Source: a bacterium
GTDB taxonomy: Bacteria; Patescibacteriota; Minisyncoccia; Phycocordibacterales; UBA6899
NCBI GenBank assembly: GCA_043756865.1
Contig: JAYUQG010000024.1
Location: 91,259 to 155,258, forward strand
DNA: 64,000 nucleotides
Direction of reading: 5' to 3'
This document shows, in pieces, positions 1,091-12,612 of the stretch; positions within the stretch are counted from its first letter, which is position 1; each line of letters opens with the position of its first letter. A program made the position numbers and the translations under genes. The notes beneath the pieces were generated by a model, which was given only the letters and a program-made list of their open reading frames with translations, ran no database searches and had not been told where the DNA came from.

Positions 1091-1690
1091 ATGTTCACCT
1101 CTATTAAAGACACGAAGAAAGGTTTCACCCTGATTGAGCTTCTTGTGGTCATTGCGATCATCGGTATTCTCTCTTCAGTTGTGCTCGCATCGCTTTCAAC
1201 CGCGCGCCAAAAGTCACGTGACGCAAAGCGTATCTCTGACGTAGGGCAGATTCAGCTTGCGCTCGAACTCTTCTTCGACGCACAGCAGAGCTACCCACGA
1301 ACAACGCAGCTTGCAAGTACTGTAACGCAGGATGGAGGAGTGCTCGCTCTTACTGCCGCTCAATTTCTTCCTCAGACACCGGTTCCTCCAGCAGGTGGAA
1401 GTCCAAAGTATTTCTACCGCGGTCGTGTAAGCGCAGCGAATCCCCCCGGCATTGCTGATGAGTGTAATGCACTTGCAGAGACATCATGCACTTCGTACAT
1501 TGTTGCAGTCACGCTGGAGCGTGCGGACAACACCGTGCTGACAAGTGATGCCGACACTGACGCAAGTGCTTGGGTTGCCCATGCAGCTGGAGTGGTAGCA
1601 CAGTATGGTGAAGGAGGTGACATCTTTGGTGGCGCTGCAGCTTGTGGGGTCACTGGTGGTGCAGACCTTTGCTACGACATCTCACCGTAA
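1091..1690 (+). CDS. Type IV pilin (prepilin-type N-terminal cleavage/methylation domain); candidate major pilin
   Basis: N-terminus KKGFTLIELLVVIAIIGILSSV is the class III signal and methylation motif. Long structured 5' region. Confidence 0.85.
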   Translation: MFTSIKDTKKGFTLIELLVVIAIIGILSSVVLASLSTARQKSRDAKRISDVGQIQLALELFFDAQQSYPRTTQLASTVTQDGGVLALTAAQFLPQTPVPPAGGSPKYFYRGRVSAANPPGIADECNALAETSCTSYIVAVTLERADNTVLTSDADTDASAWVAHAAGVVAQYGEGGDIFGGAAACGVTGGADLCYDISP

Positions 1691-1776
1691 GCAACAGCGA
1701 ATCTTATTTGATTCCAACACAAGCCCAAGCGGGGCTTGTTTTGTTTCGGGCCACCAAGTATGTCTGAACACTCGAG

Positions 1777-2628
1777 GTGAGATGGTATACTGTGTTCCAC
1801 ATGACGTTGTATATTGGAGTTATATACTTTCTTGCTTTTCTTCTCGGAGCTACTATCGGGAGCTTTCTCAATGTGGTTATTTATCGTATGGGAAGTGGAG
1901 TGGGGTTGGGGGGAAGGTCAAAGTGTCTTTCCTGCGGGCGCGCACTCACCGTGCGCATGCTCATTCCGTTATTCTCGTATTTCTTCCAGAAGGGAAAATG
2001 TGTATTTTGTCGCACAAAAATTGCAGTACAGTATCCCGCTGTTGAATTGGCACTCGCTTCACTTTTCGTTGCTGTTGTAGTGTTGCGTGGATTTGACCCC
2101 CTGCTCGCCACTTGGGTTGAGGTGTTACGAGTATTGCTTGAAATGACCGTGTGGTCGGTTTTACTTGGGGTACTCGTGTATGATCTCAAGCATAAGATTA
2201 TTCCTGACAGATTTTCTGTCATGTTTGCGGTTACTTCAGGAATATTGTTGTTTGTCACTACGCAATTGCAGACACCATCCGTGCAATATATTCCATTCCT
2301 CAATACTACGCCTGCGTGGATTGATTGGGCGGCTGCCCCCCTTATTGCAATTCCGTTTGCGTTACTGTGGCTTCTCTCGGGTGGTCGCGCGATGGGGTTG
2401 GGTGACGCGAAACTTGCTTGGGGGATAGGGTGGTTTCTCGGTTTTTCAGGTGGCGTAACGGCGGTCATTCTCAGTTTTTGGATTGCATTCATCCCAAGTA
2501 TAGTGCTGTTGTTTCTTCGTGCAAAACACTTTACAATGAAAAGTGAGATTCCATTTGCACCCTTTCTTGTGCTCGGCACACTTGTCACTTATTTGTTTGG
2601 GGTCGACATACTCGCATGGACATTTTAG
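1777..2628 (+). CDS. pilD: Prepilin peptidase (A24 family, PilD)
   Basis: N-terminal Cys tetrad (CLSCG…CVFCR), multiple TM segments, conserved GLGDAKL motif. Gene context. An alternative start at 1801 is possible. Confidence 0.85.
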   Translation: MRWYTVFHMTLYIGVIYFLAFLLGATIGSFLNVVIYRMGSGVGLGGRSKCLSCGRALTVRMLIPLFSYFFQKGKCVFCRTKIAVQYPAVELALASLFVAVVVLRGFDPLLATWVEVLRVLLEMTVWSVLLGVLVYDLKHKIIPDRFSVMFAVTSGILLFVTTQLQTPSVQYIPFLNTTPAWIDWAAAPLIAIPFALLWLLSGGRAMGLGDAKLAWGIGWFLGFSGGVTAVILSFWIAFIPSIVLLFLRAKHFTMKSEIPFAPFLVLGTLVTYLFGVDILAWTF

Positions 2629-2647
2629 GCGATTCGGTATTTATAAT

Positions 2648-3292
2648 ATGTACAAGAAACAGCCATACACACAGTCCCAGTCATTGGAGAAAGGATTTTC
2701 CCTGCTCGAACTTATTGTTGCCATTTCCATTTTTATTGTCCTTTCGAGTGCTTTTTTGATTAACTATAATTCGTTTAATAAGCGTATCAGTATTGATACA
2801 TTGGCACATCAGATAGGCCAGTGGGTTCGCGATGCTCAAGTTTCTGCAATGAGCGTGAAGCGGACCAGTGTTTCATCGACCGTATTTCCCGGATATGGGT
2901 TGCATTTTTCGACATTAACTCCCAACAAGTTCATCTTTTTTGCAGATTCCCTGACCGCAAATAATCAATATGATGCAGGTGTGGGAATATGCGGCAGCGC
3001 AACCACTGAATGTGAGCGTGAGGTGCAACTCCTGCAGGGGAATGTGCTTGAGGCGCTCTGCGGCGATGCTCCGTCGGGTGCCGCCATTACGGCAAAATGC
3101 GGACTACTCGATACTTCAGAAACATTTGATATTGTGTTCACGCGACCCAATCCTGATGCGGTAATTACTGGCGACCTTGGCGGGGCATCATTCCCCACAG
3201 CGTATTCTCGGGCACAAATTCATTTGCTTTCCCCTGCAGGACACCGACGTGTGGTGGAGGTGTGGACAACTGGCCAGGTATCAATCAGATAA
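2648..3292 (+). CDS. Prepilin-type pseudopilin / minor pilin
   Basis: LEKGFSLLELIVAISIFIVLSS prepilin N-terminus. The ATG at 2648 follows immediately after the pilD stop. Confidence 0.75.
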   Translation: MYKKQPYTQSQSLEKGFSLLELIVAISIFIVLSSAFLINYNSFNKRISIDTLAHQIGQWVRDAQVSAMSVKRTSVSSTVFPGYGLHFSTLTPNKFIFFADSLTANNQYDAGVGICGSATTECEREVQLLQGNVLEALCGDAPSGAAITAKCGLLDTSETFDIVFTRPNPDAVITGDLGGASFPTAYSRAQIHLLSPAGHRRVVEVWTTGQVSIR

Positions 3293-3296
3293 TGCC

Positions 3297-3908
3297 ATGA
3301 AACCAAACGTTATAAAAAAAGCAGGAAAGAAGAATGGATTCACACTCATTGAGATGATTGTCTCGATGTCTATTTTTACCATCGCACTCCTCATTATCGT
3401 TGGAGCGCTTATCAGTCTTGAAAATGCGAGCAGGAAAGCCCGAACAGTGCGTATTGTGACTGACAACTTGAGTGCGGCCATCGACTCCATGTCGCGCAAT
3501 GTGCGCATGGGCACGTATTACCACTGTGGTTGCGTCGGCCCCTATACTACGCCGCTTAACTGCCCAATGACCGACGACACGGGAGGTGGTGGCGCGACAT
3601 GCTTGGCGTTCGAGAGCCAGCGTGGCGATCCATCTATTTCAACCGACCAATATATCTACCGCCTTTCAGGAAATCGCATAGAACGCTCAACAGATGGCGG
3701 AAGCACGTTTCTCGCGCTCACAGCTCCTGAGCTCGATGTAACAAACCTGCGTTTTTATGTCACGGGAACTGAGACAAGCAGCAATCAACCTTATGTGACA
3801 ATGATAGTTCGTGGCTCGGCGTCCACCACACCAAGGACGGCAACAGATTTTAATATTCAAACAACCATCGGCGAGCGAACCCCAAACTTCGACTTCACAG
3901 CACCGTAG
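3297..3908 (+). CDS. Prepilin-type pseudopilin (PilW/GspJ-like)
   Basis: KKNGFTLIEMIVSMSIFTIALLII prepilin N-terminus. Starts 5 nt after the previous stop. Confidence 0.7.
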   Translation: MKPNVIKKAGKKNGFTLIEMIVSMSIFTIALLIIVGALISLENASRKARTVRIVTDNLSAAIDSMSRNVRMGTYYHCGCVGPYTTPLNCPMTDDTGGGGATCLAFESQRGDPSISTDQYIYRLSGNRIERSTDGGSTFLALTAPELDVTNLRFYVTGTETSSNQPYVTMIVRGSASTTPRTATDFNIQTTIGERTPNFDFTAP

Positions 3909-3910
3909 CC

Positions 3911-4510
3911 ATGAAATACTCAAATGCACATCACAAGGGTTTTACACTCATAGAGGCAGTGGTCTCCATTGCAATTTTAGCGTTTGCGGTCGGAGGTCCC
4001 ATGGCACTTTCCGCACAAAGTTTGCGTGCGTCGCGTGAGGCGCGTATCCAGCTGGAAGCTATACACATTGCAGAAGAGGGAATTGAGATTATTCATAACA
4101 TTCGTGACAATAATTCCGCAAAAGACGTTACGCTCACCCGCGATGCATGGATGTCATCCATACTGGGAACATGCGTAGGCGGTTGTATCGCGGATGTTAC
4201 TGACCACTCCGCTGGTGTATGGGGTCCAGCAGCACTTACTGCATGCCCCGCTGGTGACTGCAGTGTTGTAGGGCGCATTTACTATCATCCAACGTCATCA
4301 TTGTATCGACAACGCCAAATCGCGCTTGCGGCGCCGTGGGTGCCAACGGTGTTTACCCGCTCAATGACCGTTGCGGGCGTTGATGACGTGTCGAATCCTG
4401 TGCGACAGGTCGTGGTTACCTCAACGGTGACGTATCAGGGATATAATGGAGCCATCCGTACAATAAGCGTACGTCAGGATCTTTACAATTGGTTTCCTCG
4501 GCTCAACTGA
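3911..4510 (+). CDS. Prepilin-type pseudopilin (PilV-like)
   Basis: HKGFTLIEAVVSIAILAFAV prepilin N-terminus. 3-nt spacing from the previous gene. Confidence 0.75.
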   Translation: MKYSNAHHKGFTLIEAVVSIAILAFAVGGPMALSAQSLRASREARIQLEAIHIAEEGIEIIHNIRDNNSAKDVTLTRDAWMSSILGTCVGGCIADVTDHSAGVWGPAALTACPAGDCSVVGRIYYHPTSSLYRQRQIALAAPWVPTVFTRSMTVAGVDDVSNPVRQVVVTSTVTYQGYNGAIRTISVRQDLYNWFPRLN

Positions 4511-4516
4511 TACTTC

Positions 4517-5041
4517 ATGAAACACTTACGCACACAACTTGAGGATGAAAAACAAGGAGGATATATTCTTCTGCTCACCGTGCTCATTGTCAGCATTATT
4601 CTTGCAATCAGTTTCAGTATTTATGCACTCAGCATAAAGGAAGTAATTCTCGCATCGTTCCTTCGGGAATCAGAAAAGGCATTTACTGCAGCAGACCGTG
4701 CGGTGGAGTGTACAATCTATTGGGACCGTTCGTTCCCTCAGAATGGTTTACCCTACACTGCGTTTGCAACGTCAACAACTTGGGTAGATCCTGTTAATGT
4801 CAATACGGTTGTCTGTGACACCACCTCGCTTCCGCTCATTCCTTGGGATAACACCACAGGGAGAACTGCAACGAGGGGGATTACCACATTTACCATGCAG
4901 TATGTAGATGGTACGTGCGCTGATGTAACAGTCATCAAAGAAAACGGAGGAACAAACATCACCACCAATGGCTATAACAATTGCACACCCGGTGCAGCGC
5001 GAAGAACGCAGCGGACTATTCTGGTTGACAGTAACATTTAA
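4517..5041 (+). CDS. PilX-like minor pilin / pilus-associated membrane-anchored protein
   Basis: Single N-terminal hydrophobic helix (GGYILLLTVLIVSIILAI) directly after the pseudopilin genes. Cys-containing extracellular part. Confidence 0.5.
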   Translation: MKHLRTQLEDEKQGGYILLLTVLIVSIILAISFSIYALSIKEVILASFLRESEKAFTAADRAVECTIYWDRSFPQNGLPYTAFATSTTWVDPVNVNTVVCDTTSLPLIPWDNTTGRTATRGITTFTMQYVDGTCADVTVIKENGGTNITTNGYNNCTPGAARRTQRTILVDSNI

Positions 5042-5047
5042 CACTAA

Positions 5048-7156
<2,109 letters not shown>

Positions 7157-7253
7157 GACGCAGGGGCGGAAGCCCTCCAAGACAATGGGGAAGATTTTTT
7201 ACGAAAAATTTTCTGTTTTGTCAATGAACTCATCATTTCGCAAATGGTGTAGT

Positions 7254-7547
7254 ATGAAGACCATGCTCACAAAAGATGACATCAGTAATCTGGCAGAACT
7301 CGCGCGACTTTCTATTTCTGACGAAGAAAAAGCACTTTTCGCAGAGCGTCTTGGTCCCGTACTTGCCTACGTATCCGAGGTAACCTCCGTTACTACCGAA
7401 GAAGATGCAGTGCCCCGTGTTGGTGCACTAAGAAATGTTATGCGCGAAGATGGCGCGCCCAGAGAAGGCGGAACCTTCACTGACCGTATCCTCACCAACG
7501 CTCCTGCAACCGAAGACGGGTATGTTAAAGTGCGTCAGATTTTCTAG
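7254..7547 (+). CDS. gatC: Asp/Glu-tRNA amidotransferase subunit C
   Basis: MKTMLTKDDISNLAELARLSISDEE… is the typical GatC N-terminus. ~97 aa. Directly upstream of gatA. Confidence 0.85.
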   Translation: MKTMLTKDDISNLAELARLSISDEEKALFAERLGPVLAYVSEVTSVTTEEDAVPRVGALRNVMREDGAPREGGTFTDRILTNAPATEDGYVKVRQIF

Positions 7548-7557
7548 TTTTCCACCT

Positions 7558-8991
7558 ATGTCTATCGATATACACAATCTCACAATTAAAGATGCAAGTG
7601 TCGCGCTTCGCGATGGGGAATACACTTCGGTGCAATTGACCGAAGCAGTGCTTACTAATGCAAAAAAAGAAAATCCAGAAATCAATGCGTATGCGGAAAT
7701 TTTTGAAGATGCGGTGGAGCTCGCCGCAAAGGCGGATGCACTGATTGCCCGCAAAGAGGGTGGACCAATGACCGGCATCCCTGTGTCTATAAAGGACAAT
7801 ATGCTCTATCAAGGCAAAGAATCTACTTCAGGCTCGATGATTTTGCGCGGACACAAAGCGACATACAATGGGACAGCAGTTGAAAAACTCATAGCCGGAG
7901 GAGCGGTCATTATTGGACGCACAAATATGGACGAGTTCGCCATGGGAAGCTCAACAGAGACGTGTGCCTATGGGCAGGTAAAGAACCCTATTGACCCCAC
8001 ACGCGTTCCTGGGGGCTCTTCTGGGGGTGCTGCTGCATCGCTTACTATGGGGGGCGCCCTTGGCTCCTACGGCTCGGATACGGGAGGGTCTATTCGTCAG
8101 CCTGCTGCGTTTTGCGGCATCGTTGGGCTAAAGCCCACCTACGGTGCAGTTTCGCGTTACGGACTTATGGCACTGGCGTCATCATTGGACCAGATTGGAC
8201 CATTCGGGAAAACCGTAGAAGACACGAGACTCCTTTTTGATGCAGTGCGTGGGCACGACCCCATGGATAGCACGTCAGTACCCGAAGCACATGCACTCCG
8301 CGCAAAACGCGATGCACCAAAGACGCTCACCATTGGTATTCCGGAGGCATTTATCGACATGGATGGAATGGATGCAGATGTACGTGAAAATTTTCGTGCA
8401 ACGATCGCCCGACTGGAAGCTTCAGGACACAAAATTAAACCTATTGACCTGCCGTCGATGCCGCGATCGCTTGCGGTGTACTACATCATTCAGCCCGCAG
8501 AAGCTTCCGCAAACCTTGCGCGGTATGATGGTATTCGTTTTGGATTCTCGAAATCCGCAGACCGTCTTCGTGAGGTGTATACAGAGACCCGCGGAGAAGG
8601 GTTTGGCAAAGAGGTCCGCCGACGCATCCTCCTTGGAACGTATGTACTTTCTGCAGGATATTACGATGCGTACTACAACAAAGCAGTTGCAGTTCGCCGC
8701 ATGATTATGGAGGAGATGAAGAAGGCGTTTAGTGAGGTAGATGTTATCGCTACACCCACCACCCCTTCTCCCGCATGGAAATTGGGCGCAATGAACGCGG
8801 ATCCACTCAAGATGTATCTCGAAGACATCTTCACTGTACCCGCCAATATTGCCGGTGTGCCAAGCATCTCCATTCCCTCAGGTGTGGTGACGCGCGACGG
8901 CGTGGTGCTTCCCGTGGGTATACAGTTCATGGCGGATGCATTCAACGAAGACGTGCTGTTTCAGGCGGGTTCTGCAGTTGAGCGTATATGA
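7558..8991 (+). CDS. gatA: Asp/Glu-tRNA amidotransferase subunit A (amidase signature family)
   Basis: Amidase signature GGSSGGAAASLTMGGALGSYGSDTGGSIRQPAAFCGIVGLKPTYG. Confidence 0.95.
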   Translation: MSIDIHNLTIKDASVALRDGEYTSVQLTEAVLTNAKKENPEINAYAEIFEDAVELAAKADALIARKEGGPMTGIPVSIKDNMLYQGKESTSGSMILRGHKATYNGTAVEKLIAGGAVIIGRTNMDEFAMGSSTETCAYGQVKNPIDPTRVPGGSSGGAAASLTMGGALGSYGSDTGGSIRQPAAFCGIVGLKPTYGAVSRYGLMALASSLDQIGPFGKTVEDTRLLFDAVRGHDPMDSTSVPEAHALRAKRDAPKTLTIGIPEAFIDMDGMDADVRENFRATIARLEASGHKIKPIDLPSMPRSLAVYYIIQPAEASANLARYDGIRFGFSKSADRLREVYTETRGEGFGKEVRRRILLGTYVLSAGYYDAYYNKAVAVRRMIMEEMKKAFSEVDVIATPTTPSPAWKLGAMNADPLKMYLEDIFTVPANIAGVPSISIPSGVVTRDGVVLPVGIQFMADAFNEDVLFQAGSAVERI

Positions 8992-9638
8992 CTATGTCAG
9001 ACAAACCCCCAGCAAAAGGACCACCAAAAGCAGCAGTAGGAGCGCCAAGCGGAAACAAGATATTTGCGGAGGTTGGAGGTATTCTCATAGCACTCCTCGT
9101 GTTTCTTCCAATCTTAAGCTCGCTTGCGGGGTCGCTCGGATTTCTTGGAGTGGTTGGTGACACGGTGGCTTCTGTTTTCTCTTATGTAAAGATGCTCGCT
9201 ACGGTTATTTCAATGGTTGCATTGATTATTGCTGTCTATTCGTTTATACGTATTTCAGAAATTGCCGCTGAGGAAACAAAGAAGCTTGGGCTCGCGCTCA
9301 ATTGGACAAGTGAACGAAAGCAGAAGAATGCACGTTGGGAGCGCGTAGAGACATACATGACTTCGCTGAATTCCTCTGACTGGAAAATTGCGATTCTTGA
9401 GGCTGATAACATTCTCGACCAAGTAGTAGAACGGATGGGCTACAAGGGGACCACGCTTGGGGAGCGCATGAAGCATATCGAAGCAAGTGATTTCCCGTAT
9501 CTTGAGGACGCATGGACTGCACATAAGACAAGAAATGCGATAGCGCATAAAGGGACTGACTATGAAGTATCCCGCAGTGATGCGGAGCAAACCATCAATA
9601 TCTATCACAGAATTTTTAAGGAGTTGGGGTATTTGTAA
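8988..9638 (+). CDS. Membrane-anchored DUF4145/HEPN-like protein (predicted RNA-targeting fold)
   Basis: ATGA overlap with the gatA stop. Two or three N-terminal TM helices. C-terminal domain carries an Rx4H motif (HKTRNAIAHKG) of the DUF4145/HEPN type. Confidence 0.55.
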   Translation: MTMSDKPPAKGPPKAAVGAPSGNKIFAEVGGILIALLVFLPILSSLAGSLGFLGVVGDTVASVFSYVKMLATVISMVALIIAVYSFIRISEIAAEETKKLGLALNWTSERKQKNARWERVETYMTSLNSSDWKIAILEADNILDQVVERMGYKGTTLGERMKHIEASDFPYLEDAWTAHKTRNAIAHKGTDYEVSRSDAEQTINIYHRIFKELGYL

Positions 9639-9646
9639 AGCCCAGT

Positions 9647-10777
9647 TTATTCTGCCCATGGACTCGCCAATGGTTCGCCTACAAAAACACCTTGTGCAGG
9701 AAACGCAACGCTTTTCCAGTATGACTCAATCAGCGTCTCTCCTTGAGTGTAGTGAGTAATCACTATTTGTGGGTCAGGAAATTTTTTTTTCAGCGCGTAC
9801 GGTTCGCTTACTGTGCCGTAACTCCCTGTTACTCCAGCTTCAATAAATTCAAGTATGCTCATTTGCGAAGTGTCAGTCAGCATTCCACCAAATGAGGTTA
9901 GGTGGTCTGCTACTGCCCCATTGGGAAATTTGTTTGACGAAATGTTGGGGACCTTGGTTAGACCCTGAAAATAAAAGAGTGCATCGGTAGTATTAGAAAT
10001 GTAATTTTCTGAGGATGCTTTTGTTGATGTGGCACTCTCGGGTTGCGCAGAAAGAAGTTTCACGTGCACTTGCTGGCTAATTGCATGCCCAAGCATCGAT
10101 TTTGAATAATTATTTGCACGCATGCTTCTTATTTGATCTGATGTTTTCATAATGTACGCACTCCCAAATGGTTGTGAATTGTCAGAGGCGACCCCCCGCT
10201 CAATTAATTTTTTTACGCTCGAGACTGATTTTCCCGCGAGCATCATTGATGGCCTAAACCCAAAATCTGTATATGGTGCCAGAGACAGAGAATTATAATA
10301 GGGAAGTGCATCGGGCACATTCCGAGGATCAACGCACGCCATATCGTTGTACCCGAGAGATATTGCGGAGGTAATTCCGTTGCAATTAACGCGTGAGGGG
10401 TTTGTCCACGCAACGGCAATAATCTGAACTGTCTTTGGCAATGCAGCGTTTACTTCCTGAGATAATGCACCGAATTCCTCAGCAGTTAATTGATTTTTTA
10501 GGGGGAGGCTAACATGGACAATATTTTCATTCGGTATACCCCTTTTTGTTTGGTAGTACCATCCAATCTCGATACTTTCGGGGTCATTTTTGTTAATAAC
10601 AATTCCGGTGTTTTGACTGGTTACTTCCCTGTGAAACGTGAGCAATTTCTTTACTGGGGAGATTGTAACCCCACCTTCACTTCGGAAATGTCCAACAAAG
10701 TAGGTACTTACAAACATATAAGCAAGGACAAAAAGAAATATTTCTTTTCTAGGCATGCATACAGAATAGCATAGCAA
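9647..10777 (-). CDS. Hypothetical secreted or membrane-anchored protein (376 aa)
   Basis: N-terminal hydrophobic segment (IFLFVLAYMFVSTYFVG). No recognisable catalytic motif. Converges on the HEPN-like gene. Confidence 0.6.
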   Translation of the reverse strand: MLCYSVCMPRKEIFLFVLAYMFVSTYFVGHFRSEGGVTISPVKKLLTFHREVTSQNTGIVINKNDPESIEIGWYYQTKRGIPNENIVHVSLPLKNQLTAEEFGALSQEVNAALPKTVQIIAVAWTNPSRVNCNGITSAISLGYNDMACVDPRNVPDALPYYNSLSLAPYTDFGFRPSMMLAGKSVSSVKKLIERGVASDNSQPFGSAYIMKTSDQIRSMRANNYSKSMLGHAISQQVHVKLLSAQPESATSTKASSENYISNTTDALFYFQGLTKVPNISSNKFPNGAVADHLTSFGGMLTDTSQMSILEFIEAGVTGSYGTVSEPYALKKKFPDPQIVITHYTQGETLIESYWKSVAFPAQGVFVGEPLASPWAE

Positions 10778-11092
10778 GAAAGCAGGCTTAGCCTAAGGGA
10801 ACTCTCGGCTACCGCCGCGGGTGATATTCAATCTCGACGACTTGATAATGGATATCCTTTCTTCAGCAGACGGGACTCTAGCATAAGAGGCGCAACACCC
10901 ATTTCCAATTTTCAGAACGAGACTCTGTCGCGAATATTTTGCTTGCCGCCGAGCGCAAAATTTCTCGACCCCAGCTCGTGGTTTCGCCTGCTGACGAAAC
11001 ATCGCTCCGCTTTTCGAGTCCCTCGTTGAGTGCGGCAGCGCACTCAACACCGCCGTGCAAAAATACCACCTTACGGTGGCTTTTTGTATTTG

Positions 11093-11166
11093 CGCGGCGG
11101 ACGGGACTCGAACCCGCAACCTCCCACGTGACAGGCGGGTGCTCTAACCAGTTGAGCTACCACCGC
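11093..11166 (-). tRNA. tRNA-Asp (GTC)
   Basis: Reverse complement folds as a cloverleaf: acceptor GCGGTGG/CCGCCGC, anticodon loop CTGTCAC, T-arm GCGGGTTCGAGTCCCGT. Close to E. coli tRNA-Asp. Confidence 0.85.
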
Positions 11167-11195
11167 AAATATTATTTTCTGGCCACCTTGACCAG

Positions 11196-11272
11196 TGGTG
11201 TCGACGGGAGGGAACGATCCTCCGACCTCGGGCTTATGAGTCCCGCGCTCTAACCAACTGAGCTACGTCGAC
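11196..11272 (-). tRNA. tRNA-Met (CAT); elongator-like, Ile2-lysidine not excluded
   Basis: Acceptor GTCGACG/CGTCGAC, D-arm GTAGCTCAGTTGGTTAGAGC, anticodon loop CTCATAA, CCA encoded. Confidence 0.85.
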
Positions 11273-11552
11273 ATATAAACATGCGTGCTCCAGTCACACC
11301 AATGAGCACAGTGGATTTATAGCATATTCTGTCTCAAAATCAAACTTGGATGTCATTTGCATGCGGTTAGGAATTAATCACCAGTCCTAAGTTCACAGAC
11401 AGGACTCGGTCACGAGTTACTAAGTCTTTTGGTGCGAAGGCCACCAAAAGCCCAAGTACTCCCGACCCCGACTCGCCCGTCTCACAAGGCTTCGACATGG
11501 CTCCGTCTTTCGATTCCTGATGAAAGTGCCATTGGGCGCTTTTTTGTAATTG

Positions 11553-11623
11553 TTGCGGGGACAGGAATCGAACCTGTGCCTGAAGGTTATGAGCCTTCCG
11601 AGCTACCGCTGCTCCACCCCGCT
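11553..11623 (-). tRNA. tRNA-Met (CAT), initiator-like
   Basis: GCGGGGTGGAGCAGCGGTAGCTC… resembles bacterial tRNA-fMet. A1:A72 mismatch, anticodon loop CTCATAA, T-loop TTCGATT. CCA not encoded. Confidence 0.8.
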
Positions 11624-12438: not shown

Positions 12439-12514
12439 GCCGTTTTAGCTCAGCTGGTAGAGCATTTCCATGGTAAGGAAAAGGTCCCCGGTTCGATTCC
12501 GGGAAACGGCTCCA
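12439..12514 (+). tRNA. tRNA-Thr (GGT)
   Basis: Acceptor GCCGTTT/AAACGGC, anticodon loop ATGGTAA, T-loop TTCGATT, CCA encoded. Confidence 0.9.
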
Positions 12515-12537
12515 TGCTAGTATCTCGCTACTAGTTT

Positions 12538-12612
12538 GCCGCCTTAGCTCATCTGGTAGAGCAACGGTATCGTAAATCGTAGGTGCCCAGTTCGAGTCTG
12601 GGAGGCGGCTCA
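12538..12612 (+). tRNA. tRNA-Thr (CGT)
   Basis: Acceptor GCCGCCT/AGGCGGC, anticodon stem ACGGT/ATCGT, loop ATCGTAA, T-loop TTCGAGT. Confidence 0.85.

Follow-up and report, generated by a model that had tools for sequence, protein, structure and literature searches.

In canonical gatCAB operons, gatB is normally found directly after gatA. In the 64,000-nucleotide stretch of DNA analyzed here (the window), gatC (7254-7547), gatA (7570-8991) and an open reading frame for a 216-aa protein that we call X (8988-9638) are arranged head to tail, all on the + strand, and the slot immediately downstream of gatA is occupied by X and not by gatB. The question raised by the locus is what kind of protein is encoded in that slot, and whether its location beside two amidotransferase genes tells us anything about its function. 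A sequence-only reading had rightly pointed out that X lies where canonical operons have gatB, and had described it as a membrane-anchored DUF4145/HEPN-like protein co-translated with gatCA, possibly a defence protein or toxin directed at tRNA, or else a selfish gene.

Both amidotransferase genes are true orthologues, as their products score above the curated TIGR cut-offs: GatC matches PF02686 (6e-13) and TIGR00135 (54.8 bits, cut-off 47.1), and GatA, the glutaminase subunit of GatCAB, matches PF01425 (6.9e-145) and TIGR00132 (536.4 bits, cut-off 481.1). Upstream of them, on the + strand, lies ligA (5114-7156), a 680-aa ORF for an NAD-dependent DNA ligase, which is the first gene of a conserved block ligA-gatC-gatA-X. 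When homologous loci were surveyed by tblastn, ligA preceded gatC in most of the 80 loci, and DNA_ligase_aden, OB and BRCT Pfam domains were detected in its product. The ligA-gatC gap is the loosest junction among relatives, with a median of 61 nt and more than 100 nt in 20/57; in the window, a consensus scan alone detects in this interval a weak terminator-like hairpin with a T-run (7175-7190, + strand), made of a 5-bp stem followed by AAGATTTTTT.

At the other end of the block, the ATG of X (8988-8990) lies on the TGA of gatA (8989-8991), and the ATGA overlap noticed beforehand is indeed present in the sequence. In an alignment of 44 homologues, the invariant start column falls on a second ATG, located at 8994 (Met3), which is also the codon at which the public gene call for X, of 214 aa, begins. 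Because of these two observations, the conserved start of X may be ATG 8994, and the gatA-X junction may be a 2-nt spacer instead of an overlap.

No gatB gene was found within the 64 kb of the window. A full-length GatB that has both Pfam domains is widespread in the clade, however, and encoded away from gatCA: gatB lies behind obg (obg-gatB) in loci L091 and L092, and upstream of ligA in locus L047. The probe of the first GatB tblastn search was a Bacillus GatB sequence, validated only by the recovery of a 479-aa ORF in L047; the database twin of this ORF carries PF02934 and PF02637. As GatB is widespread and encoded elsewhere, the idea that X might replace it is ruled out.

The N-terminal transmembrane (TM) helices attributed to X were confirmed as two hydrophobic segments that are helical in the AlphaFold2 model. 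Helix 1 (aa 25-43; 9060-9116, + strand) has a 19-aa Kyte-Doolittle mean of 2.56 and belongs to a modelled helix that spans residues 23-49; helix 2 (aa 69-87; 9192-9248, + strand) has a mean of 2.45 and belongs to a single modelled helix that spans residues 54-125. Helix 1 is poorly conserved, and the N-terminal tail is rich in Lys and Arg. Helix 2 is conserved and is continuous, in the AlphaFold2 model, with the helix that opens the cytoplasmic domain. Across the X family, a mean of 3.2 Lys/Arg residues is found within the 15 aa that follow the last TM helix. The loop between the TM helices is short in the window, and contains one to several SH3-fold repeats in long orthologues. Given the distribution of Lys and Arg, which fits the positive-inside rule, and the existence of SH3-fold repeats between both TM helices, the C-terminal domain is predicted to be cytoplasmic, with the order N-tail, TM1, extracytoplasmic loop, TM2. 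In roughly half of the relatives, a crude hydropathy scan detects a single TM segment, a figure that may reflect the start-codon calls used.

The C-terminal domain (~aa 100-216, ~115 aa; 9285-9635, + strand) was modelled by AlphaFold2 with pLDDT values of 95-98. HEPN domains have an Rx4-6H motif that ends helix 3 and, near it, a conserved acidic residue in helix 2 (PMC3710099); the location of the motif of X agrees with that description, and Asp140 is the candidate for the acidic residue. The model is a four-helix bundle of the up-down type, made of two alpha-hairpins as in the definition of the superfamily given in the same paper, with the helices in the expected order at residues ~100 to 125, 129-149, 172-191 and 196-213. 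The insert that HEPN domains have between helices 2 and 3 is represented by residues 150-171, which form a loop with a short helix (157-162). The Rx4H motif and an upstream His (H179-K-T-R182-N183-A-I-A-H187; 9522-9548, + strand) are located in the last third of helix 3, with R182-N-A-I-A-H187 inside helix 172-191. The KTRNAIAHKG stretch from which a HEPN domain had been proposed is found at aa 180-189. All 72 divergent family members share H179, R182, N183 and H187 without exception, and Asp140 (9405-9407, + strand), in helix 2, is invariant in both family alignments, A1 and A2.

Searches against known structures and families were also performed. The best PDB matches found by Foldseek for the X model include HEPN proteins (1wty, 2hsb, 2q00, 1o3u and 1ylm) at E 0.14-1.2, with TM-scores normalised to target of 0.43-0.56; similar scores are reached by generic four-helix bundles, cytochrome b562 among them. 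In the Pfam scan of X, no match to DUF4145 or to any other HEPN family was obtained even at E<=1; the NCBIfam scan produced noise only and no family, and PDB sequence searches with family profiles A1 and A2 yielded nothing but transmembrane-helix noise. The relatives of X do show many sub-threshold matches to the HEPN clan. HEPN_Swt1 (PF18731) is matched by 34/72 relatives at E<=1 (best 1.5e-4), all under the gathering threshold of 27.5 bits, and the family consensus scores 17.9 bits against this model, along profile positions 25-111 of 115. DUF4145 (PF13643) gives a weak match in 4/72 relatives (best E 0.0044), others match RiboL-PSP, pEK499_p136 or Cthe2314 below threshold, and a HEPN model of Cas13a can be aligned with the family consensus. 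By profile comparison, the nearest Pfam model to the X family is HEPN_Swt1, below threshold. Membership in DUF4145 is hence not supported, while the profile evidence for a HEPN domain is divided: X itself has no match, and its relatives have many below threshold. A membrane anchor followed by a C-terminal HEPN-superfamily-like domain is nonetheless upheld by the AlphaFold2 model, the invariant motif and the sub-threshold HEPN-clan matches.

X has 182 close homologues, and the family comprises 2,736 cluster representatives at E<=1e-3, carried by hundreds of species genomes and confined, as far as sampled, to Parcubacteria-type genomes. The linkage between gatA and the HEPN-like gene proved to be general: gatA lies directly upstream of X in 78/78 informative species-level genomes, as well as in five further loci, with a median gap of 19 nt. 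A random insertion of X after gatA is ruled out by this linkage. X is single copy in each surveyed locus, and no paralogues were found within these loci. The X domain is conserved almost as strongly as GatA (mean pairwise identity 48% vs 56%), and the divergence of X tracks that of GatA (Mantel r=0.50, p=0.001). Altogether, X looks like a conserved core gene that is inherited vertically in the Parcubacteria (Paceibacterota), a branch of Patescibacteria; because it adjoins gatA in every related Parcubacteria genome checked, it would be neither a toxin nor a random insertion. No description of the X family was found in the literature on HEPN proteins with amidotransferase or in Patescibacteria, on Swt1-like HEPN domains, or on RNase Y/J of Patescibacteria.

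The ATGA overlap had been taken to indicate that X is co-translated with gatCA. The overlap is a fact in the window; as a general property, however, co-translation is not supported, as X is preceded in most relatives by a spacer of 5-40 nt after gatA and by a -10-like box at leaderless distance from the start codon. A -10-like hexamer ends 7-8 nt before the start of X in 28/83 loci, and is found anywhere between -18 and -5 in 47/83, compared with a background of 6-8%. Shine-Dalgarno enrichment, tested as a sign of coupling, was not detected for any of the three genes. X is probably transcribed in most relatives from a leaderless-type promoter of its own, embedded at the end of gatA. Because most relatives appear to have such a promoter, coupling by overlap appears to be specific to the clade of the window, where X would be expressed from the gatCA transcript via its overlapping or 2-nt-spaced start. 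An embedded promoter may itself help to lock gatA and X together. The conserved adjacency could be neutral: ligA belongs to the same block though it is functionally unrelated, and a promoter embedded in gatA would likewise keep the gatA-X order.

On the opposite side of X, the conserved neighbour is usually a tRNA(CAT)/tRNA-Asp cluster and not a protein-coding gene. The same tRNAs are found no more than 1 kb downstream of X in 50/65 relatives, and the first of them is initiator-like and lies on the same strand in 44/61 loci. The downstream tRNA genes have promoter-like elements of their own. Protein-coding neighbours downstream of X are unrelated between genomes, as ORF clustering yields 53 clusters in 62 loci. 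In the window, the cluster detected by ARAGORN (11092-11623, - strand) contains tRNA-Asp(GTC) and two tRNA(CAT), one of them initiator-like, and is displaced and inverted relative to its usual place directly after X. A TIGR03790-family gene that converges on X (9647-10777, - strand; TIGR03790, 6.8e-63) fills the interval; it was not found downstream of X in the other loci and lies outside the conserved block.

On balance, we think it probable that X, a member of a family undescribed so far, is a predicted HEPN RNase tethered to the membrane and a vertically inherited core protein of Parcubacteria with a housekeeping role. Its C-terminal domain would be a cytoplasmic endoribonuclease of the HEPN superfamily, and the two Rx4H motifs of a dimer would make up a composite, metal-independent active site, as in other HEPN RNases. 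[quoted passage not shown] Together with the variable ectodomain, the rigid connection between TM2 and helix 1 suggests that activity might be set from the envelope side, with a logic similar to that of Ire1. Such a role might lie, for example, in the processing or turnover of RNA or in an RNA transaction related to translation, with no part in biological conflict.

The gene neighbourhood admits a more specific interpretation. X might be a tRNA-directed partner of transamidation, either a membrane-tethered HEPN nuclease or a tRNA-binding module that processes tRNAs or controls their quality; its targets might be the tRNAs on which GatCAB acts, or else the initiator, Met and Asp tRNAs encoded nearby, and it may even contact GatCA physically. 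X invariably adjoins gatA, with short gaps or overlaps, the tRNA cluster follows directly in 50/65 loci, and X and gatA remain neighbours even in loci where X seems to be transcribed from a promoter of its own. Several HEPN nucleases are also known to cut tRNA, including the anticodon nucleases PrrC/RloC and some HEPN-MNT toxins. We consider such a partnership unlikely, however: no fusions of X with GatA, GatC or LigA exist among 269 family proteins, the unrelated ligA is equally part of the block, gatB, which encodes the tRNA-binding subunit, is located elsewhere, behind obg, the tRNA genes have promoter-like elements of their own, and the window has retained X even though its tRNA cluster has moved away. 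A fuller version, in which X is a lineage-essential, non-conflict HEPN endoribonuclease, anchored in the membrane and controlled from the envelope side, that processes or polices the tRNAs of GatCAB or those of the adjacent initiator, Met and Asp genes, seems quite unlikely; if true, it would explain why X stays between gatA and the tRNA cluster across the Parcubacteria radiation.

Two other interpretations question either the catalytic activity of X or its housekeeping nature. X might have a HEPN fold and no RNase activity, and act as a membrane-anchored helical adaptor or sensor whose conserved His, Arg and Asn bind a ligand, for instance a nucleotide or a protein. Many HEPN domains are non-catalytic binding modules, such as the C-terminal domains of nucleotidyltransferases and GlnD/GlnE (PMC3710099); the HEPN homology of X is detectable only below threshold, and SH3-fold ectodomains and a continuous TM2-helix 1 suggest a signalling protein. 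This possibility is quite doubtful, as none of the 72 divergent members deviates from the complete catalytic signature (R, N and H of RNxxxH together with the Asp of helix 2): such a pattern is regarded as diagnostic of active RNases, and non-catalytic HEPN families typically lose the motif (PMC3710099). The proposal that X works as a toxin or as an effector of abortive infection, or that it entered the gatCA operon as a hitch-hiking selfish gene, faces a different kind of objection, namely that its position is fixed in 78/78 species genomes, in single copy, with a divergence that correlates with that of GatA and with 48% mean identity kept across the clade. No antitoxin-like or MNT-like partner is found next to X, and the protein-coding genes downstream differ by genome. 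Real members of the family have no match in the PADLOC defence models, and the family has no match in PHROGs and is absent from the 2.9 million viral contigs of IMG/VR. Hence X lacks the context of toxin-antitoxin or abortive-infection genes, be it a partner, a defence island, or a mobile or patchy distribution. It is true that, of the prokaryotic HEPN proteins characterised so far, most belong to conflict systems (PMC3710099), that the models nearest to X are those of the Abi2/Swt1 group, and that X sits in the canonical gatB slot. The distribution of X nevertheless largely refutes a toxin or a selfish gene, and we hold either to be very improbable.

Nearly all that is known of HEPN domains in prokaryotes comes from conflict systems, namely toxins, Abi proteins, CRISPR effectors and restriction-modification add-ons. 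If a housekeeping HEPN RNase is what X encodes, it would be a rare bacterial case with an intact catalytic motif, to be compared with eukaryotic Las1 and Ire1, and a core gene of a huge, poorly understood radiation. Parcubacteria are distinguished by a set of conserved 'hypothetical membrane proteins' (PMC6744442), and one of these would also gain a candidate function. The strict gatCA-X-tRNA order provides a testable lead to the substrate of X, and, although these organisms have not been cultured, the small size of the cytoplasmic domain makes it accessible to direct biochemistry.

Housekeeping endoribonucleases tethered to the membrane are known in bacteria: RNase Y and membrane-bound RNase E are core gene products with an N-terminal anchor and a cytoplasmic endonuclease domain. 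X resembles them in its membrane anchor, its predicted cytoplasmic endonuclease domain and its core-gene behaviour, but their folds (KH/HD, or S1/DNase I-like) are entirely different. With PrrC/RloC and some HEPN-MNT toxins, X shares the superfamily, as predicted, and a location among tRNA-related genes; in contrast, those proteins belong to defence or toxin-antitoxin modules that have ATPase or MNT partners and a patchy distribution, while X has neither partner and is not patchy. The HEPN_Swt1/Abi2 (AbiD/AbiF) clade includes the best Pfam similarity of X, to HEPN_Swt1, and has an RNxxxH-type motif like that of X; however, all scores of the X family are below 27.5 bits, and Abi2 proteins are soluble products of patchy defence genes. 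Eukaryotic Swt1, which contains a PIN domain and an inactive HEPN domain (PMC3710099), also differs from X.

In overall logic, X would resemble Ire1 (KEN) and C6orf70/ERMARD, in which an outside sensor and a TM segment are linked to a cytoplasmic HEPN RNase activated by self-association, although on the side of X this arrangement is a prediction. A kinase domain is missing from X, the KEN domain is a circularly permuted one, the proteins come from unrelated organisms, and the external loop of X is short in the window genome. The analogy with Ire1 has been drawn before for bacterial TM-HEPN proteins (PMC3710099). Membrane-associated bacterial HEPN proteins were predicted by Anantharaman et al. 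2013 (PMC3710099), who described, in Firmicutes, a DUF4145 group that combines TM and SH3 domains, as well as an Abi2/Swt1 group to which a conserved TM helix is fused. X departs from these groups in that it reaches no Pfam HEPN threshold, is found, as sampled, in Parcubacteria-type genomes only, and is a single-copy core gene beside gatCA and a tRNA cluster, a context not described in that study. It is like them in having one or more TM helices ahead of a predicted cytoplasmic HEPN domain whose Rx4-6H motif is intact and, in some members, SH3 external domains. For bacterial TM-HEPN proteins, stimulus-dependent RNA cleavage at the inner membrane face was predicted, with external domains, some of them SH3, proposed as sensors (PMC3710099).

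In the window, X, the membrane-anchored ORF with a C-terminal HEPN-like domain, is the last of four successive plus-strand genes: ligA (5114-7156), gatC (7254-7547), gatA (7570-8991) and X itself (8988-9638, 216 aa). Matches of gatC to TIGR00135 (54.8 bits, cut-off 47.1) and of gatA to TIGR00132 (536 bits, cut-off 481) both exceed the NCBI equivalog thresholds. X's first ATG (8988) shares an ATGA overlap with the gatA stop; an alternative ATG at 8994 matches a start column invariant in 44 homologues and opens the public gene call (214 aa). As both starts are possible, the gatA-X junction is either -4 or +2 nt. X contains two hydrophobic segments (aa 25-43 and 69-87), and the motif KTRNAIAHKG spans aa 180-189. 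The factual description in the sequence-only reading (gatC-gatA-X order, ATGA overlap, N-terminal TM helices and this motif) is borne out by the sequence. The same reading placed X in the slot of gatB, which is correct with respect to canonical gatCAB operons; gatB was not found in the 64-kb window.

In relatives, gatB is located elsewhere. It was detected in one of 88 X loci examined (L047, a 479-aa GatB ahead of ligA), and in both other contexts looked at it lies immediately 3' of the GTPase gene obg (L091, 3995-6425; L092, 4030-6440; gap 0-37 nt), which suggests a conserved obg-gatB pair in place of the canonical gatCAB order. Replacement of GatB by X was rejected, as Parcubacteria of this clade commonly encode a full-length GatB, complete with both Pfam domains, at another site.

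When one genome per GTDB species was scanned for X, at least 593 confirmed pattern matches were obtained, and 80 loci were taken from Taylor-, Nomura-, Campbell-, Vogel-, Zambryski- and Kaiserbacteria, Paceibacterota and unnamed Patescibacteria. The gatA-X linkage is kept: gatA lies directly 5' of X on the same strand in 78 of the 80 (the other two begin at a contig end), and also in five loci fetched via exact protein look-up. Median gaps are 61 nt for ligA-gatC, 4 nt for gatC-gatA and 19 nt for gatA-X (IQR 5-32). GatA and the X domain diverge together: their pairwise identities correlate (Mantel r=0.50, p=0.001) and average 56% and 48%, respectively. Protein-coding neighbours 3' of X are unrelated (53 clusters in 62 loci).

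Some of these loci carry questionable labels. A contig assigned to Acidimicrobiales (L041, JBLIMJ010000032.1) shows the typical Parcubacteria ligA-gatC-gatA-X order and probably reflects a binning error. The label 'uncultured Candidatus Saccharibacteria' is likewise doubtful for many TPA MAGs, since they have the same Parcubacteria-type locus. The window (1091-5041) and its closest relatives (L001, L004, L095) also have, 5' of ligA, small genes whose N-termini bear type IV pilin-like signatures (N_methyl; weak PpdB matches in relatives); they lengthen the conserved block upstream.

Genes for tRNA(CAT) and tRNA-Asp(GTC) are found within 1 kb 3' of X in 50 of 65 loci from the set L001-L088. The cluster comprises two tRNA(CAT), tRNA-Asp(GTC) and often two tRNA-Thr, and its first member is initiator-like and on the same strand as X in 44/61 loci. 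The window has this cluster in inverted orientation (11092-11623, minus strand), with a TIGR03790-family gene (9647-10777, minus strand, 6.8e-63) between it and X; this gene is convergent to X, only 8 nt separating the stop codons. None of the other loci examined has the gene at this position, which suggests a lineage-specific insertion. Positions 12439-12611 (plus strand) of the window were also assigned to the conserved cluster. Conservation of gatA upstream and of tRNA genes downstream points to ligA-gatC-gatA-X-tRNA(CAT)-tRNA(CAT)-tRNA-Asp as the ancestral block.

Additional elements were observed 3' of X. The tRNA-cluster region of L082 contains a group I intron (1066-1362; Rfam RF00028, 52 bits), and an ORF family of about 235 aa with LAGLIDADG-like motifs occurs in six loci (five similar ones besides L022, 1529-2236); both may represent insertions of introns or homing endonucleases close to tRNA genes. 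Spacers of L060, L066, L069, L080, L082 and L084 harbor repeats whose beginning resembles the 5' portion of the initiator-like tRNA (AGCGGGGTGG...) before they run into non-tRNA sequence. The repeats were recognised as tRNAs by neither ARAGORN nor Rfam; they may represent fragments of tRNAs, tRNA genes that are interrupted, or tRNA-like elements.

Expression signals were sought in the loci of relatives. None of the three genes gatC, gatA and X shows an excess of Shine-Dalgarno-like motifs ahead of its start. What is enriched is a -10-like hexamer, present between -18 and -5 from the start (background 6-8%; consensus matches, function predicted) in 47/83 loci for X, 28/65 for gatC and 7/77 for gatA. 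It ends at -7/-8 in 28 loci for X and 18 for gatC, and at -7 in two for gatA. A -10 box that stops 7-8 nt short of the start codon has the spacing of a leaderless mRNA; given boxes at this distance, X probably has its own promoter, embedded in the end of gatA, in most relatives. Where the gatA-X gap is 4 nt or less, as in the window, such a box was found in only 2 of 18 loci, so genuine overlap coupling seems confined to the clade of the window. Promoter-like elements of their own (consensus matches) were also seen for the tRNA genes. The -10 boxes before gatC and X, together with the lack of Shine-Dalgarno enrichment, suggest widespread leaderless mRNAs in these Parcubacteria. The boxes before gatC and X were taken from the 25 nt 5' of the starts in loci L009-L088; in the window, TAGTAT (7250-7255) lies 8 nt 5' of the second in-frame gatC ATG (7263).

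The X family is large: 182 close homologues share 56-100% identity (one labelled Candidatus Lloydbacteria), and 2,736 representatives of 50%-identity clusters match at E<=1e-3, 552 of them at E<=1e-30. Scans of X itself against Pfam and NCBIfam gave no family match, including none to DUF4145. When 72 divergent relatives were each scanned against Pfam, HEPN-clan matches recurred, all sub-threshold: HEPN_Swt1 in 34 (best E 1.5e-4), RiboL-PSP-HEPN in 11 (0.0031), pEK499_p136 in six (0.0027), DUF4145 in four (0.0044) and Cthe_2314 in four (0.007). The family consensus aligns to positions 25-111 of the 115 of HEPN_Swt1 (17.9 bits, cut-off 27.5) and weakly to a Cas13a HEPN model. Invariant across the 72 are W117, W132, D140, G154, H179, R182, N183 and H187.

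In an AlphaFold2 model built with the family alignment, the C-terminal domain has pLDDT 95-98. TM2 passes directly into domain helix 1 as a single unbroken helix (54-125), followed by helices 129-149, 172-191 (containing the RNxxxH motif) and 196-213, with an insert at 150-171. Top Foldseek matches in the PDB include HEPN proteins 1wty, 2hsb, 2q00, 1o3u and 1ylm (E 0.14-1.2), and generic four-helix bundles rank beside them. The domain is thus very probably a HEPN superfamily member and, within that reading, its nearest relatives are very probably the Abi2/Swt1 group. Of the initial DUF4145/HEPN label the first half is not supported: the domain lies outside DUF4145 and every current Pfam family.

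Lys/Arg counts in the family (about 3.5 in the N-terminal tail, 1.8 in the inter-helix loop and 3.2 in the 15 residues past the last TM helix) are consistent with an N-in, C-in protein whose HEPN-like domain is predicted to be cytoplasmic. Longer orthologues, up to 696 aa, contain one to several repeats of about 75 aa between both TM helices (P0138, P0183, P0236, P0215, P0132 and others; locus L095, 5001-7091). The insert of a 300-aa variant is modelled by AlphaFold2 as an all-beta domain (pLDDT ~95) whose best Foldseek matches are dozens of SH3 domains (probability 0.9-0.99; TM-score normalised to target 0.6-0.69); no Pfam SH3 match was found in the repeats. The 696-aa variant occupies the same ligA-gatC-gatA-X locus. 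With such inserts, the predicted family plan is cytoplasmic tail, TM1, variable ectodomain, TM2 and cytoplasmic HEPN, and the external part is evidently an expansion hot spot.

What X does admits more than one explanation. The sequence-only reading proposed a tRNA-directed defence or toxin function, or a selfish gene. A fixed position, divergence that follows GatA, high conservation and the lack of a partner gene speak against the defence, toxin and selfish-gene readings; no genuine family member matched a PADLOC model, and viral copies were not found. The best-supported reading is that X would be a core, membrane-tethered, cytoplasm-facing HEPN-type endoribonuclease, either housekeeping or envelope-regulated. 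X may also act on tRNA or with GatCAB: strict adjacency to gatA and flanking tRNA genes favour such a link. Four points speak against it or at least account for the adjacency in another way: the block also includes ligA, which has no functional relation to these genes; fusions were not seen in any of 269 family proteins; the units seem to have separate promoters; and a gatA-embedded promoter alone would hold X and gatA together.

No description of the X family was found in Pfam, NCBIfam or the literature that could be searched, and it probably belongs to the 'Parcubacteria-enriched hypothetical membrane families' described by PMC6744442. New are its core-gene behaviour and its constant gatCA/tRNA setting. 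[quoted passage not shown] X is a protein of this predicted kind.
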